A stretch of DNA of 23,745 bases from an uncultured Nitrososphaerales archaeon (lineage in GTDB: Archaea > Thermoproteota > Nitrososphaeria > Nitrososphaerales > Nitrososphaeraceae), in contig CAVPXM010000007.1 of assembly GCA_963709405.1 (NCBI GenBank), positions 1 to 23,745 on the forward strand. The letters run 5' to 3'. This document shows positions 1,120 through 22,746 of this stretch, piece after piece. Position 1 is the first letter of the stretch. Each line of letters begins with the position of its first letter. Made by a program: the position numbers and the translations under genes. Below the pieces are notes generated by a model. The model was given only the letters and a program-made list of their open reading frames with translations, was not told the origin of the DNA and did not search any database.

Positions 1120-1429
1120 TTAAACCTCCACGTAAATAGTATCATCTTCTAATGTGATTCTATATGATCCGAGTGGTTGAAGTTTCTGTGGAAACCAGAT
1201 TAGATCACCGGTAGTTATATCCCATTTTGAACCATGCCACGGACATGTCAATTCCTTACCGTCAAGTCCACCGCCATCATGAAGTTCATTCGGCACTAGT
1301 ACAAATATTACTTGTAGCGTAATATCTTCCCTTTACATTAGCAACTAGTATTTCTTTACCGCCTGCTGTTATATGGGTCATTTTTCCTTCAGGTATGTCG
1401 GATGTTTTTCCGACGATTATTTTTGCCAT
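1120..1429 (-). pseudogene. Rieske-type [2Fe-2S] ferredoxin, frameshifted (absent from ORF track)
   Basis: Manual translation gives MAKIIVGKTSDIPEGKMTHITAGGKEILVANVKGRYYATSNICT, then a shift near 1290, then ELHDGGGLDGKELTCPWHGSKWDITTGDLIWFPQKLQPLGSYRITLEDDTIYVEV*. The CPWHG box is intact; the first CxH box is corrupted. Confidence 0.9.
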
Positions 1430-1972: not shown

Positions 1973-2189
1973 GTTAGTTTGTACAAGCAGAAGTATTAAT
2001 ATTGTAGTTAGATATCCTATATAATAGTTATTTAGAATTAGTCAGATTTTCTATATCTATTCTCTTAAAAATGTGTGGTTGAGTTGTTCGAATTTATTGG
2101 TATTCTTAAATCGGATTCAGAACTAAATCGACATTTCTGGTTCTAATTACGAAGATATAACAGTTTATTTGTAGACATTTCTGCATAAC

Positions 2190-2232
2190 ATAGATATAGA
2201 TTTGATGGTAGTGTACATTTCCTTCTTTTACT
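2190..2232 (-). repeat. Isolated 43-bp exact inverted copy of IS630 transposase coding sequence 14465-14507
   Basis: The reverse complement AGTAAAAGAAGGAAATGTACACTACCATCAAATCTATATCTAT is identical to 14465-14507. Identity stops abruptly on both sides. Confidence 0.95.
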
Positions 2233-2233
2233 G

Positions 2234-2263
2234 ATACTACTGATGAATTACTATCAGTAGTAT
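2234..2263. other. Perfect hairpin, 11-bp stem and 8-nt loop
   Basis: ATACTACTGAT (2234-2244), loop GAATTACT, ATCAGTAGTAT (2253-2263). Confidence 0.85.
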
Positions 2264-2752
2264 AAAAATACGATTTAATATGATATGTAATTGACATGAT
2301 GGGAGTATAAGATGAATTAGAATAAGCAACTAACCACATATAGATATAATAAAAATGTGTATTGGTAGATATTACTACCGATGACCTTTACATCACCATA
2401 TTAATTTCTTTCATTTTATTTAGGTTTGATAGTTTTGAAAAGACTTGATACTTTCGAAGTTAGTACTTAGTTCATCCAGGAAAAAGATTTCGGTTAGTTG
2501 GTAATCGTGCTCAGATGTTACATGAAATAATGGATAGTATGATATGTTTAAATATTGATGTGATGAATTAGCTATATTGGTTTCAATCTTTTGATTTAGA
2601 AAAACTCTAGTAGATATTTAAATCTAATAAATGAATATAAAAATTGATATTAATTGCATACTTCAGAAGACGATAAGACCAAAAGGAATTACCTAAACAA
2701 GGGTAAAAAGCAGTATCAGTAGCGAGACAAAATACCGCAATCCATAGTTAAT

Positions 2753-3521
2753 ATGATTATGGGTAATGATGCGAACAACATTTTAAAGCATAGGATGGTC
2801 GATACTGAAACACTTGTATCTCAAACCCAGAATAGAATTTGGAGTGCCTTGAAAAGACACTATCAATACGATTCAACATTAAAACCCGGACAAAATTTCC
2901 TCCTAAAGCATGTGAATTCAAAAATTCCATTAGTAATCATGTATGCGGATCTAGTTGGCTCAACTAATATGAGTATGACCCTACCCATAGATAAAGTGGT
3001 AACTATAATAAGAGCATTTTCATACGAAATATCTTCAATAGTTCAGAGTTATAACGGTTATGTATTAAGGTAACGTAGGAGATGCTGTTATTGCATTCTT
3101 CTCATCGGACTATAATAAATTACTAGCATGTGATAAAACAGTACAATGTGCTCAATCCATAATAACCGTAATCAAGAATGGAATTAATCCTATATTGAAT
3201 CAATATGATTACCCTGAACTTAGTGTCAAGATAGGAATTGATGAAGGTGAAAATGTAATTGTGCAATATGGACATGACAAAGTCTCCCCTATTGATGTTC
3301 TTGGCTACTGCATGAGTATAGCGGCGAAAATAACTTCATTAACCTATTCAAACACGATTATGATAGGTGACGATGTATATAATTCACTTCATCCACAAAT
3401 GAAGTCTAAATTCAAGGAGATTAAATACAATACTGAGGAATGGAAATACACTAATAGACAAACTGGTCAAGTTTACAAGTCTTCATGCAATGTAGTTTCG
3501 TCAATATCATTATCTTTTTAA
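2753..3521 (+). pseudogene. Class III adenylate/guanylate cyclase domain protein, frameshifted
   Basis: Motifs MYADLVGST, GYVL[KY]VGDAVIAFF (shift near 3070), KIGIDEG and DVLGYCMSIAAKI. The true start may be upstream (about 2655). Confidence 0.9.
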
Positions 3522-7046: not shown

Positions 7047-7457
7047 CTAGGAAGCTTGTGGCGTTACAGATCCTGATGATGGGGCTGGTTGTGATGATGG
7101 GGCTGGTTGTGATGATGGGGCTGGTTGTGATGATGGGGCTGGTTGTGATGATGGGGCTGGTTGTGATGATGGGGCTGGTTGTGATGATGATCCAGAAGAG
7201 TTTGATGTTGGGGTTGACGGGGTGCTTTTTGGCAATCCACAAATTTCAGATTCCGTCTGATTGACGAAATTGAGTCTAGGATTATCTGACCTACAGAACT
7301 GCTTTACTTGTTCTGGAGTCAGTCCATGCGAATCCTGACCTTGTTGAGCTTTAACCTGAGTTGTAGTTATTATAAAGAGAGCTAATGTCATCATACTAAG
7401 TTGCAAAATATAACTAAGGTGTATTTTATCCATCTTTGTTAATTGAAAGACATCCAT
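7047..7457 (-). CDS. Predicted secreted protein with a two-Cys domain and (SSQPAP)6 tail
   Basis: Signal-like segment ending VKA-QQ, Cys pair in QFCRSD..EICGLP, Ser/Pro-rich repeat C-terminus. Confidence 0.8.
   Translation of the reverse strand: MDVFQLTKMDKIHLSYILQLSMMTLALFIITTTQVKAQQGQDSHGLTPEQVKQFCRSDNPRLNFVNQTESEICGLPKSTPSTPTSNSSGSSSQPAPSSQPAPSSQPAPSSQPAPSSQPAPSSQPAPSSGSVTPQAS
7074..7189. repeat. Perfect 18-bp tandem repeat, 6 copies plus a partial copy
   Basis: Unit TGATGATGGGGCTGGTTG starting at 7074, 7092, 7110, 7128, 7146 and 7164. Confidence 0.97.
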
Positions 7458-8207
7458 TTTAAAAGTTTTTGTATCGCTCTACTCATTTCCGGCTTCCTCA
7501 AGTCCTTATTTTTAAAATTTTTATTTATCAATTTAATAGATTTATTAAATTTATAATGATTTAAAGATTTGATGGTAATTTAATTATAATCAAATGTAAC
7601 CTAAAAAAGACAACTGGGATCAAAAAGTCGCTTGTATTGACAAAACGTTCCACACTAACTTATATCTCAACGCTGCTTGCATACATCTACTTTTCTTGTT
7701 CTGCTATGGCCTAATTATCAGATTGGGAATTGGGTAATTCCCATTGTAATTCCTCAGAATTTGAAGAATGTCATATTAGAACTTCTGTGAGTATTGTGAA
7801 AGATGATTTGATAAGACTTGTATGATGTTGCCTTATGTCCCATAAGCTAAAGGACATAGTTTCCAGTACCTGTATCTATTCTTCGTCTTAAGGTCAGGAT
7901 GGTTTATAAGGGAAATATGATTTGATTATGTCCTATATTATATGTTATATATTATATATTATCGAATTATCCATATTATTATGGAAAAGATATCCTCATC
8001 ACAACTATCTTCTAAGTGACACTGCCACACCCAATGGTACTATTGAAAATGATGAATTCTACATCGATATAGGACGAATGGCACATCATATCACAATAAC
8101 TTCTTTGAGAATACCAACTTATATGGCATAAGTATTGACGAGTTTTGATCAACAAAATATCTCGAGCCGTCAATTAACGAGTATAAAAAGCTTCATAATC
8201 TTTATCC

Positions 8208-8921
8208 GGCCCTGTTAACTTAGAGATAATTCCACCTTCTTAGATCGTCAAATTTAGTACTAGATTTTATAACGCTATTGTGCATAAATACGAACAGAAT
8301 GAGCCATTTGTGAACGTGTCTAAGATTGCATAATCCAGCCATCATACATGGATAGTAATCATCAAATGCCTCAGTTCTACCCTTTAGATATTCTATCGTT
8401 CTTTCAACTATACTCTTTTCGTATGGCGAATGTAATCTATGCTTTAGTCCTAATGATATACATACTTCCGGATACCATGTTCCATCATCACTATAAACCA
8501 CGTGTTTGCAATAAATCTTGATTAACGATCTTAGGAATGATTCAGCTACAATCATATTCCTGTGTCTTGAGATGTAAACTCCAAGAATTTGTCTGTGTAT
8601 TGGTTCTACGGCAACCCATAACCAAGCCTGGTCAGGACCAATCTGCACCATGGTTTCATCAATTAGAAAAGCTGCCACTCTTTTACAACAGTATAGACGT
8701 CTGGGATTGAATCTCTGAACCCATTTCCATATTGCAACATGACTCCTTCCTCTCTCTTTCCAAATAGTTGGATTGCCTTAGATGTATTTATGAAACTTAG
8801 GCCTAGAAAATATAAGTATAATGCATACAATATTGTCTCCGCGGATGTTCTCTCACGTTCAAATAAATTCATTGAATATGAGAGAATGTTTGCAGCTATA
8901 GCTTTATCGCTAAGTTAACAG
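8208..8921 (-). mobile_element. IS6-family insertion sequence, right end clipped
   Basis: Left end GGCCCTGTTAACTTAGAGATAA (8208-8229). The right copy TTATCGCTAAGTTAACAG (8904-8921) matches 17/18 but lacks the terminal GGCC. Confidence 0.85.
8220..8872 (-). pseudogene. IS6-family DDE transposase, frameshifted
   Basis: YALYLYFLGLS, FLIDETMVQIG..WLWVAVEP, VYSDDGTWY and KSIVERTIEYLKGRTEAFDDYYPC across ORFs 8663-8872 and 8220-8678. Confidence 0.92.
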
Positions 8922-13845: not shown

Positions 13846-14042
13846 TTAGCCGACATTCCTCTTCGTTAATATCGCTGGCTTAACATGCACCAATTTGGGA
13901 TTATGCTGTATCATTGAGATAATCTGATTGAATCGCTGATTAGTCTCATCACGGATAGCTTGAATGTCCTGTTCATATTTTTGCTTCATGGCCTGTATCT
14001 CTCTATCCTTTTCAGATAATTTTGATTCAATGCTTTTGCCTC
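13846..14042 (-). pseudogene. C-terminal coiled-coil tail of a probable tyrosine integrase, truncated by IS630
   Basis: SKLSEKDREIQAMKQKYEQDIQAIRDETNQRFNQIISMIQHNPKLVHVKP resembles tails I recall from Nitrososphaeraceae integrases. No catalytic residues remain, so the call is from recall only. Confidence 0.55.
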
Positions 14043-14573
14043 TACCAATTAAGATAAGTATACTCACATATTATTGATGGAATTGTCATATTCCTCGTAC
14101 AGGAAGAGCTATAGCTTTGTTCATTGATCTGCTTTCCTGAATGAGTCTTGACTCTTAGTAGAGGAGAATTAGAAACTTGGTACAGGAAGGAATCACGAGC
14201 GGGACTAAAGGAGAGGCTATTACTTGTTCTCAAAGTCGAAGGTGAAGGAATGATTCCAGCTCGTGTTGCAAAGGAGCTGCACAGAAGCAGAACATGGACT
14301 TCTGATTGGCTTGCAAGATATCGTAAGGAAGGTATTAACGGACTAGAGAATAGGCCTAAGAGTGGTAGGCCCTCAAAGCTACCTAAAGAAGTTGCTCTTA
14401 AGGTAAGGAAGAAACTGAAGGAAGGAAAACAGGGCTGGACTACACAACAGGTAAATGAAATGATAGTAAAAGAAGGAAATGTACACTACCATCAAATCTA
14501 TATCTATACATTGCTTCATAAGTGGGGATTCAAACAGAAGGTACCTAGGAAAGTGCACGTTAATACTGTACCA

Positions 14574-15571
14574 TGCTTTGTTGCGCGATTCATTATGTTG
14601 TAAGTGATATTTATTTGACCACTCTGCATTTAGCTACCCAATAATAATTATTCTGGCATGATTGACTGGCCTTCGTATAATCATTCATTAGTAAGACGTG
14701 GCCAAGTACTCTTAGATTTTGATGTACTTGATGGATGGGATCATGAATTATCTCAAATGAATCTTGGTAAGGTTGGTGAACCTTACGACTATCCAGATTC
14801 CTTTATTAAGATCCTAGGTTACATGAGAGCTTATTTTCATCTACCATATAGACAGACAGAGGGCGTAGTTATAGCACATGCAAGTACAAAGGTTCCAGGT
14901 ATACCACATTATAGTACCATTAGTAGACGCATAAACAGGCTAGAGATCAAAATCAATGAAAAATTAGGAAATGATATTGTCATTGCTATAGACAGTACCG
15001 GTATTAAAGTAGCTAATCGAGGTGAATGGATCGGCATAAATGGCATGTTAGGAAAGGATATCTAAAGATACATGTAGCAGTTGACATCAAGAAGAAAAGA
15101 ATCCTGTCTTTGGAGGTAACTAGTGAAGAGGTACATGATGGTAGGATGCTAAGCAAGCTAGTAGACAATGCTTCTGAGAATAATCATGTGAAGGGCATGT
15201 TAGCAGATGGTATGTACGACAGCAATAACAATTTTAGATACCTGTCAAAGAACCATATTAAACCAGGTATAAAGACAAGAAGTAATTCCAAGGTAAGGTC
15301 AACTAACTGTCATGCTAGGAATATGTCTGTAGTAAAACAACAAGCAAATCTCAAAAGATGGAAGCGTAGCGTGAGCTATGGACACAGGTGGATGGCAGAA
15401 ACAGCATTCTCTTCAATTAAAAGAATGTTTGGTGAACATGTAACAGCTAGAAAATTTCCTAATATGGTAAAGGAAATCTTCCTAAAGGCAACTCTGTATA
15501 ACATGTTCAATCGAATGACCTAACTAACGGCTTGCATAACCTAAAATCCTAATGAATCATGCAACAGAGCA
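14574..15571 (+). mobile_element. IS5-family insertion sequence (ISH1/IS903-like), 998 bp
   Basis: 22-bp TIRs TGCTTTGTTGCGCGATTCATTA vs TGCTCTGTTGCATGATTCATTA (19/22). 8-bp target duplication CTGTACCA at 14566-14573 and 15572-15579. Confidence 0.95.
14658..15523 (+). pseudogene. IS5-family transposase, single 1-nt frameshift near 15031
   Basis: WPSYNHSLVRRG, LPYRQTEG, IAIDSTGIKVANRGEW / RHKWHVRKGYLKIHVAVD, LADGMYDS, YGHRWMAETAFSSIKRMFGE. Confidence 0.93.
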
Positions 15572-16685
15572 CTGTACCACAAAAGGAGAAAAAGCAGTTT
15601 AAAAAAGAGCACAGAAAATACTAGATTGTCTACCGAAGGACTTTACTGTAGTATCACTGGATGAATCATTCTTCTTCTTTGACAGCCTTGTTAGAAAAGT
15701 ATGGATCTATAAAGATTCCAGACCTGTAGTTACAATAACAGGCTCGCACAGAAATTTTTGTATGTTTGGAGCTATTAGTCTTGAAGGAAAGCAGTTATTC
15801 AGACAGTTTGAAAAGTTTGATGAGGATACATTCTATGAATTCCTAAAACAGATACATTACAAATTCCCAAAATGTTATTTATTCTTAGATAAGGCACCTC
15901 AACACTATAAATCTCATAAAATAAAAAAGTACTTTGAAGAACATAAGGATAGTCTAATACCAATCTATCATCCAACAGCATCACCAGAGTTTATGGTGCT
16001 GGAAGAATGCTGGAATATATCCAAAAATGATTTGTTAGTATTAGCATATTATTCGGCATTTGCAGAATTTAGAATAAGGTTAGGACAGTACTTTAGGACC
16101 AAACATTTCAATCTAAATATGAGAAATTACCTCACTAGGAATATGTCAGAGAACTTATCTTAATTGGTGTAGGTATACCAAATACGATACCGGTGCAAAT
16201 AAGTAAAATGGATATCCCTTTTCTGTCATTTTTGAGTCTACAATCGAAAAAATGAAAGATCTTGTAGGTCAATTCAACCAATGAATTTGATATATTATTA
16301 AAAAGTTGCTAATATCGATTAACAGGAACAAAAAAGAATAAGTCAATATCACGGAACTATATTTGTTAGGTACACTCATCGAAGCAAATTAGGATAATGG
16401 AATGTAGATTTTAGTTCCTAAGTTTGTCCATCATTATGGTTGATTGTTATTGAAATAATAACATCATCATTGAAAACACTGAATAATTTGTATCAAGCAG
16501 CTAACTATATGTTATTATTTGATACTTTGAATATTCAATAGGTATCAAATATTCATCTGCTTTGAATAATAGAAAGTCGAAAATTTTAGAAATTAGTCCA
16601 CGGCACATAAATAGCACATTGACAAAAAGAGATTGTAGTATGAACTTTGGTAATAGAATAGGACCAAGTTTTAATTGAAAATACA

Positions 16686-17049
16686 TTGTTAGCCGCTGCT
16701 AGGTGCGATAGAGAATTAAAGGGATACTATCCTCTTAAGAATATTCAAAATTACAAGTTAAACTATCAATCGATAGATTCAATTAATAGACTTTTTTGGA
16801 AAATGAAGCCAGGAGATTGCTAAAAGAACTAAAGCTATTAATCGCAATAGAGCAGAAACGATAACAGTCGGTTTATGTATAATAACTACATTGATGTTTA
16901 AACTAGCTTTCGAAGAGGTTACTGTAAGTTCAAGTGGACTCAGAGAGGGAATACTATCATCATTTCTGTCGCTAAGAGATATAAAAAATAATACGAATAA
17001 TAGAAAAACGATAATACCACCAACATTGAATGTACAGCAACTCAGCTAA
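16686..17049 (+). pseudogene. ppx: 3' part of Ppx/GppA-family exopolyphosphatase (absent from ORF track)
   Basis: Manual translation gives YYPLKNIQNYKLNYQSIDSINRLF / EIAKRTKAINRNRAETITVGLCIITTLMFKLAFEEVTVSSSGLREGILSSFL, containing the GLREG motif. Degraded sequence may extend upstream to about 16460. Confidence 0.8.
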
Positions 17050-17062
17050 GATAATCGGTACT

Positions 17063-17142
17063 CAAGTTATATGTATCGACAAAAAGGATTGAAATATTAG
17101 TCCCAGTAACCCTAAAGACTCTAACGACTTCAGAAAACAGGT
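17063..17142 (+). repeat. Direct repeat copy A (pairs with 22534-22631)
   Basis: 17063-17098 vs 22534-22569 match 35/36; 17099-17142 vs 22588-22631 match 41/44. Confidence 0.93.
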
Positions 17143-17206
17143 GTTTTGTTGCATGACTCTGATCCTCGTCTCTTATGGTTTAGAAGAGTAGTTATGCAAC
17201 AAAGCA
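17142..17206. mobile_element. 65-bp MITE-like element with IS5-type ends
   Basis: TGTTTTGTTGCATGACT and the reverse complement of AGTTATGCAACAAAGCA match 15/17 and resemble the ends of IS5 14574-15571. No target duplication. Confidence 0.7.
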
Positions 17207-22498: not shown

Positions 22499-22533
22499 AA
22501 ATTATTATTAAAATCAGTCAGATAATCGTAATC

Positions 22534-22631
22534 CAAGTTATATGTATCGACAAAAAGGATCGAAATATTTAAATTTAATTTAAACTGAGTCCGAGTAACC
22601 CTAAAGACTTTAACGACTTCAGATAACAGGT
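22534..22631 (+). repeat. Direct repeat copy B (18 bp longer than copy A)
   Basis: See copy A; extra AT-rich segment at 22570-22587. Confidence 0.93.
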
Positions 22632-22746
22632 TATTTAGAGATTCTCTCAAGTATAATGTTCTCTGCTATCCCATTTAACAAGATTCAAATATTGATAGGT
22701 AAGTGAAGGTTAAAATTGTAAACCTGCGATATCAATGTATACATAA

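Follow-up and report, generated by a model that had tools for sequence, protein, structure and literature searches.

How does an exact, spacer-sized piece of a transposase gene come to lie by itself in intergenic DNA, joined to a perfect hairpin, and does it serve any function there? The question arises in a soil archaeon with an assembly of 4.83 Mb in 100 contigs (91% complete, 3.7% contamination). It contains an archaeal amoA gene, which identifies the organism as an ammonia-oxidising archaeon. The window analysed here, meaning the whole stretch of DNA under study, is the entire contig C7 (23.7 kb); coordinates given without a contig name refer to it, and the main features are collected in Table 1.

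A transposase fragment next to a hairpin

Positions 2190–2232 are an inverted copy, 43 nt long and 100% complementary, of a stretch within the IS630-type element of the same window, with 12,232 nt between the two arms. An earlier note on this DNA had described an exact 43-bp copy of the interior of an IS630 transposase gene about 12 kb away, and the match indeed holds at 43 of 43 positions. A match of this length far exceeds chance in a window of 23.7 kb. The first base, 2190, is part of the native flank, and its agreement with the element is due to chance, which leaves 42 of the 43 nt (2191–2232) as copied IS DNA.

One nucleotide past the 43-mer begins a perfect 11-bp stem, also reported in the earlier note and confirmed here, in which ATACTACTGAT at 2234–2244 pairs with ATCAGTAGTAT at 2253–2263 around a loop of 8 nt. 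Perfect stems of at least 11 bp with loops of 3–12 nt number one in the window and 64 across the genome; by chance, 0.175 per window would be expected, and at least one was present in 11% of the windows simulated. The stem on its own is therefore unremarkable, but its position beside the 43-mer is not. Genome-wide, this particular hairpin occurs only at C7:2234 and at the counterpart of this site on contig C48. An IS200/IS605-type or REP-like hairpin element was ruled out, as the hairpin is unique in the genome. A 77-aa open reading frame that runs across the site (2106–2339) was likewise rejected as spurious, having no Pfam match and being broken by 536 bp of extra sequence on C48.

Table 1. 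Coordinates of features at the scar, of its flanks and of the source element in the window
Feature	Position	Strand	Remarks
Rieske-type gene	1123..1429	-	Left of the scar; 103 aa and open on C48; frame change on C7
Native intergenic DNA	1973..2189		3' of a small gene ending at 1972
Joint of the C7-only 536-bp deletion	2190..2192		TA = 2191–2192; C48:6671–7206 absent
42 nt identical to positions 439–480 of the IS630-type element	2191..2232	-	At this site the transposase sense strand is the minus strand of the window
17 nt missing from the allele of close strains	2233..2249		G, left arm 2234–2244 and GAATT
First native bases right of the scar, including right arm 2253–2263	2250..2263		X1, X2 and X15 contigs fit up to L002:1601
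Cyclase-domain gene	2654..3479	+	Right of the scar; 278 aa and open on C48; stop and frame change on C7
IS630-type element	14041..16176	+	HTH and DDE_3; matching 43-mer at 14465–14507, in the HTH-coding part

The source element in the window encodes HTH_32, HTH_33 and HTH_23 domains (within 14148–14603) and a DDE_3 domain (15762–16163), and is interrupted by an IS5-like element at 14574–15571. Its imperfect terminal inverted repeats (14039–14072 and 16140–16173) are 82% complementary, and the boundaries of the copy lie at about 14040–14044 and 16172–16177, with TA at the right end. A full-length IS630 copy on contig C21 still reads as two open reading frames. Further along the window, two direct repeats of about 99 nt (17049–17147 and 22520–22636, the second with an 18-nt insert) share 90% identity at a distance of 5.5 kb; they could be the bounds of an inserted element or paralogous upstream regions.

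Two other species of the genus retain the native DNA to the left of the fragment at the corresponding site, and in these species, as in C48, its sequence runs on past the point where C7 is cut. A short intergenic motif at about 2137–2199 (C48:7154–7261), with the core TATTTTATGTTATGCAGAAA, recurs at at least seven other loci (on contigs C26, C86, C65, C37, C73, C90 and C76), and two other species of the genus share it at this position. It might represent a promoter or RNA element common to these loci.

The counterpart contig carries a larger patch

Contig C48 contains a near-duplicate of the part of the window that holds the fragment: C7:1–8919 and C48:1–9385 are 98.3–99.8% identical, in inverted orientation. 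The pair belongs to a set of near-duplicate stretches in the assembly with identities of 97–99.8%, which also includes C20:16500–18297 with C35:5270–3454 and C37:40600–42600 with C65:3630–5632. These stretches represent either a strain mixture or genuine recent duplications.

C48 also holds the hairpin and the same 42-mer (42/42 positions of IS 439–480), and there the 42-mer has company. It abuts IS positions 678–709 (31/32), followed by IS positions 911–931 (21/21); the three pieces share one strand and keep the order of the element. The IS630 pieces are followed by 116 bp resembling the 3' part of an open reading frame with the Pfam domains rve and rve_3, at 83% identity (100 of 121 aligned columns). 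This last piece reaches at best 83–85% identity to any copy in the assembly, compared with 94 of 95 identical positions for the IS630 pieces. The third piece, IS 911–931, is also similar to the rve gene at 18 of 22 positions, and its derivation from IS630 is probable rather than certain. At the inner joints, pieces 1 and 2 share a microhomology of 2 nt (TA), pieces 2 and 3 share none, and piece 3 and the rve piece share 8 nt (AATACCAA).

Taken as a whole, the patch measures 235 bp (L002:1602–1836, where L002 denotes the C48 form of the locus) and is fully accounted for by 17 nt with a fold-back, the three IS630 pieces and the rve piece, with no native sequence within it. Together with its flanks it matches only C7 and C48 in the genome. 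No end of the element is kept in the patch, and on these grounds a MITE or an internally deleted, mobile derivative of IS630 was rejected as well. As a separate observation, two IS630-type copies (C20:17767 and C35:3985) are cut at element position ~673 (ATCTATA) and joined to the same unique DNA, and the second piece of the C48 patch starts at the same point of the element; position ~673 may be a recurrent break or insertion point.

Relative to C48, contig C7 lacks 536 bp, and in C48 both edges of the missing segment carry TA. At the right edge of the deletion the C48 sequence aligns across with the same intergenic site in genomes G004 and G005 and with the motif family of the genome, which indicates that the C48 form is ancestral there. 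The seemingly isolated 42-mer is thus the remnant of a larger patch of transposon pieces, left alone by a later deletion on C7. The earlier note had stated that no other IS sequence lies nearby. This is correct for C7, which has lost the 536 bp carrying IS630 and rve-type pieces, but incorrect for C48, where such pieces directly adjoin the 42-mer.

The remaining differences between the two contigs consist of 70 substitutions and 25 small indels, 19 of which have the extra bases on C7, mostly single and outside homopolymers. Between positions 7200 and 8919 of C7 the contigs differ by only 2 substitutions and 1 indel. Apart from the 536 bp, a single indel above 20 bp, a tandem-repeat change of ~54 bp, separates the contigs over ~8.8 kb at ~1% divergence. 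The tandem array in question, at 7056–7217, consists of an 18-nt unit (TGATGATGGGGCTGGTTG) in seven overlapping register copies, and is apparently about 54 nt (three units) shorter on C48, as judged from overlapping matches between C7 and C48. The 42-mer and hairpin are identical on the two contigs (70/70), as is the 74-nt feature as a whole, for which about one difference would be expected, a number too small to judge selection.

C7 looks like the poorer or decaying copy. It may be a duplicate undergoing decay, represent a minor variant of the locus on C48, or reflect a consensus with weak polishing. The lone 43-mer on C7 might be a false joint or a product of a chimeric read in a low-quality contig. 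The indel spectrum of C7 resembles consensus error, the genes on either side have lost their reading frame on C7, and none of the contigs from four metagenome runs extends over the C7 joint. The 42-mer and hairpin, however, stand on two contigs that differ by ~1% around them; the two sides of the C7 joint share only TA, too little for a mis-join in the assembly graph; and the differences on C7 are distributed non-uniformly, as the near-identity of 7200–8919 attests. We regard an artefact of assembly or consensus as very unlikely. The artefact suspected in the earlier note is thereby unlikely for the 42-mer and hairpin, which are present on two contigs, and could still apply to the C7-only joint at 2190–2192.

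Very close strains carry a different allele

Assembled contigs, rather than raw reads, of four metagenome runs were aligned on the C48 form of the locus, in which L002:1601 corresponds to C48:6611 and to window position 2250, within the hairpin loop, and L002:1837 corresponds to C48:6847. Contigs from X2 and X15, which come from two studies, follow the right flank with no mismatch in 480 nt and one in 200 nt, respectively, and both diverge from the locus at L002:1601 with an identical 30-nt continuation. On the other side of the patch, contigs from X2 and X6 come in from unlike sequence at L002:1837, one of them with 1,269 nt before it. The flanks of the strains without the patch differ from ours by 0 letters in 480 nt and 1 letter in ~640 nt. 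These very close strains have neither the left hairpin arm nor the 42-mer; where the present genome has 235 bp they have a different stretch of at least 1.27 kb, known from its 30-nt loose ends. The earlier note had proposed a search for the empty site in relatives, and strains X2, X15 and X6, with their near-identical flanks, supply a site without the fragment.

The point of divergence is informative about the hairpin. The left arm repeats the native right arm perfectly in inverted orientation, and the contigs leave the shared flank inside the loop, which implies that the left arm arose with the rearrangement, as an inverted copy of that flank.

The allele of the close strains was followed by its loose ends. 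Its 20- and 22-nt loose-end motifs have no match in this genome at up to 3 mismatches, and a 23-nt loose-end motif has no match in 61 genomes of the family. In metagenome contigs this 23-nt motif and a 33-nt pattern from the native flank gave 0 matches each. A 35-nt pattern across the joint of fragment and hairpin gave 0 matches in genome contigs, among which our own genome was possibly excluded. None of the contigs of the four runs bridges the joints of C7 or C48. L002:1672–1833 is uncovered in all four, which proves nothing; the contigs that fit L002:1619–1660 alone are ordinary IS630 copies. X15 is an RNA library which may contain DNA; it carries the allele without the fragment and is silent on expression. 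In other species, the flanking genes are present in genomes G004, G005 and G006, where divergence prevents an alignment of the intergenic DNA towards the hairpin; only the left side of the locus is informative in this comparison.

The X2-type flanks are nearer to C48 than those of C7 are, yet C7 has the scar in common with C48 and X2 lacks it. This discordance suggests either that alleles have recombined or that C7 contains many consensus errors.

One repair event or stepwise decay

We conclude that the 43-mer is very probably non-functional debris, whatever the exact route by which it arose. Such scraps are common in this genome, which supports this conclusion. There are six other isolated IS630 bits, and of 49 IS5-like loci 22 are full-length, 14 are partial and 13 are shorter than 100 bp. 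A comparison of the genome with itself (identity of at least 97.5%, parent repeat multicopy and at least 400 bp) found 24 further isolated 30–60-bp pieces of multicopy repeats, eight of them from the interior of the repeat. The fragment on C7 is missing from this list because the scan skips pieces that lie within longer duplicated stretches. Elsewhere, C37:40900–42400 and its twin on C65 are composed of numerous short fragments of different multicopy repeats placed end to end, one of them an 86-bp piece of an IS5-like element, and patchworks of transposon scraps seem to be common in this genome.

As to the route, we lean towards a single complex and error-prone repair of a DNA break. An ancestral break would have occurred in the intergenic stretch 3' of the small gene, and the gap would have been closed by error-prone, synthesis-dependent repair. 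One of the ends may have folded back on itself and used its flank as the template for 11 nt, which would have created the hairpin; synthesis might next have taken 42 nt from an IS630 copy, skipped ahead two times within IS630, to 680–709 and then to 911–931, switched at the 8-nt microhomology into an rve-type IS gene and finally rejoined native DNA. The outcome would be the 235-bp patch of fold-back and transposon pieces that still stands on C48, and a later loss of 536 bp between two TA dinucleotides left C7 with a lone 42-mer beside the hairpin. We infer one such event, with a self-primed fold-back, from which the 42-mer remained as a scrap without function.

Several properties of the locus are those of break repair. 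Close relatives have an allele without the patch, and the filler can be traced to templates and to the adjacent flank (11/11). The earlier note had named a repair scar as a fallback explanation, and the anatomy of the locus speaks for it. Microhomologies at the joints vary, at 2, 0 and 8 nt inside the patch and 2 nt at the C7 deletion. Other properties count against a single repair. The joint between pieces 2 and 3 has no microhomology, and the resemblance of piece 3 to the rve gene is difficult for a single-event account. With only 83–85% identity of the rve piece, a single event requires a donor copy outside the 91%-complete assembly. The scar-free X2, closer to C48 than C7 is, needs the recombination or consensus errors mentioned above. 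Polymerase theta is credited with templated insertions in eukaryotes; we know of no enzymes for such repair in this archaeal group.

The patch could also have formed by stepwise decay, in which an rve-type element and an IS630 copy inserted at the site, one within or next to the other, and were trimmed by at least five separate microhomology deletions, that of C7 being the latest; the product would be equally functionless. Truncated and nested insertion sequences abound in the genome, as exemplified by the IS5-like element within the IS630-type element of the window, and the pieces of the patch are collinear, as deletions would leave them. A 536-bp deletion with 2 nt of microhomology did occur at the locus, and the two IS630 copies cut at ~673 end where piece 2 begins. 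Deletions, however, do not make an 11-nt inverted copy of the native flank, and the near-identical flanks of the patch-free strains leave little time for two insertions and at least five deletions. Over ~8.8 kb, a single further indel above 20 bp separates C7 from C48, and no native sequence is left inside the 235-bp patch. Taking both sides together, we consider stepwise decay rather unlikely as the source of the patch.

Is the fragment a guide or a regulatory RNA?

The earlier note had likened the fragment and hairpin to an anti-transposon small RNA or to a captured, guide-like fragment, and had proposed a search for similar fragments that share the hairpin. Scraps turned out to be common, but neither the hairpin nor a flanking motif is shared. 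No stem of at least 8 bp lies within 70 bp of any of the six other isolated IS630 bits, and no stem of at least 9 bp lies within 45 bp of any of the 24 isolated scraps, against a background of 17 in 2,000 random windows. Rfam models yielded no match, either in the whole window at gathering scores or in 1950–2760 at E values up to 1, and the hairpin is not followed by a T-run on either strand. Combined with the absence of the fragment from very close strains and the lack of likeness to a CRISPR repeat or to the length of a spacer, these results speak against both interpretations.

The complementarity itself is real: the plus strand of the window is complementary to the sense strand of the transposase gene at 43/43 positions, in the HTH-coding part. 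If the plus strand of 2190–2263 were transcribed, for example by read-through from the gene ending at 1972, 42–43 nt of the RNA would pair with IS630 mRNAs in trans and could dampen transposition. The 43-mer matches seven IS630 copies at 97.6–100%, it derives from a part of the element with better-than-average conservation (97.7% identity, rank 54 of 1,111 windows), and a stretch of 91 nt is predicted to fold into a stable stem-loop (−18.2 kcal/mol, z = −2.13). Against such an RNA stand the origin of the fragment as a leftover of a larger patch, isolated only by a later deletion, its absence from the close strains, the 0/6 and 0/24 scraps with a hairpin or shared flank, the missing T-run and Rfam match, and a target that is an internal coding stretch rather than the start region. 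A trans-antisense RNA is accordingly a highly improbable explanation. One may speculate further that a plus-strand RNA of this scrap, perhaps along with those of other IS scraps, acts in trans on all IS630 copies as a crude anti-transposon memory. The idea is far-fetched; if it were true, patches of transposon debris would be an archaeal counterpart to the piRNA clusters of animals.

A stray CRISPR spacer would require that Cas1–Cas2 placed an IS630 prespacer into a palindromic site outside a CRISPR array. The fragment is roughly of spacer size and lies beside a 30-nt palindrome, and the genome does contain a CRISPR array, the sole one found, at C46:1440–1734 near a contig end, with five copies of a 30-nt repeat and four spacers of 36–37 nt. 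But the repeat of this array is unlike the hairpin, the spacers are shorter than the 42-nt fragment, no direct duplication flanks the fragment, and the adjoining pieces on C48 are not what an integration event would produce. Searched genome-wide with up to 5 mismatches, the repeat occurs only as its five array copies, none of them near the fragment, and the four spacers have no matches elsewhere in the assembly and thus no self-targets. We consider misdirected spacer integration next to impossible.

Significance of the scar

A guide-like or regulatory element at this locus would have mattered, but the evidence says debris. Our verdict is that the feature is ordinary IS debris at a repair or deletion scar, and neither a guide nor a regulator. 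In the near-identical pair of C7 and C48 and the alleles of close strains, nature has recorded a break in an ammonia-oxidising archaeon with unusual clarity. Its repair seems to have involved a fold-back and several template jumps, and the mended stretch was trimmed later by a microhomology deletion. If this is confirmed, templated, microhomology-driven repair would have left a natural footprint in organisms whose repair pathways are little studied. The locus also holds a caution. Exact, spacer-sized transposon fragments are common in IS-rich genomes, with 24 more in this one, and isolated IS fragments without a recurring scaffold should not be called captured guides.

Comparison with known systems

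The feature resembles CRISPR spacers and orphan repeat-spacer units in that a short piece of a mobile element lies beside a palindromic stretch. Unlike them, it lacks a CRISPR repeat and a flanking duplication, and its length is wrong for a spacer.

Antisense RNAs that repress transposases are described for IS200 (art200; PMC4513863) and for ISPpu9 (Asr9/Ssr9; PMC8450116), and antisense transcripts over transposase genes are described in archaea (PMC6523106). Like art200 and Asr9, an RNA from the plus strand of the window would be complementary to a transposase mRNA. As these accounts present them, the known antisense RNAs are encoded in or beside their own element and act at the 5' region (PMC4513863, PMC8450116), whereas the RNA considered here is hypothetical and would come from a distant, unconserved scrap directed against internal codons.

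IS630 belongs to the same superfamily as Tc1/mariner, with a cut-and-paste, TA-targeting mechanism in common, according to PMC2170065, and IS630 elements are reported as widespread in archaea (PMC13343696). The closest process described lies within Tc1/mariner, where the element Ozma is reported to have given rise to the Gnome, Elf and Goblin MITEs through microhomology-mediated miniaturisation (PMC3814204). The patch shares with these MITEs the combination of non-adjacent, collinear pieces of one element with joints at short microhomologies. In the description of PMC3814204 the Ozma MITEs keep both ends of the element, stay mobile and multiply; the patch, by contrast, has no IS630 end and nothing mobile, is single-copy apart from the C7/C48 pair, and contains an rve-type piece and a fold-back of host DNA.

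The patch also looks like the filler DNA seen at natural breaks (PMC2567098) and the template switching proposed in the MMBIR model (PMC2621351), both described there for eukaryotes. A full-text literature search on templated insertions, microhomology and archaea gave no archaeal study among the 12 of 17 matches listed. As in filler DNA and MMBIR, native DNA was lost at our locus and a short patch was apparently copied from elsewhere in the genome, with several template jumps, microhomologies of 0–8 nt and an inverted copy of the flank (PMC2621351, PMC2567098). Unlike the eukaryotic cases on which these accounts are based, the patch described here is archaeal.
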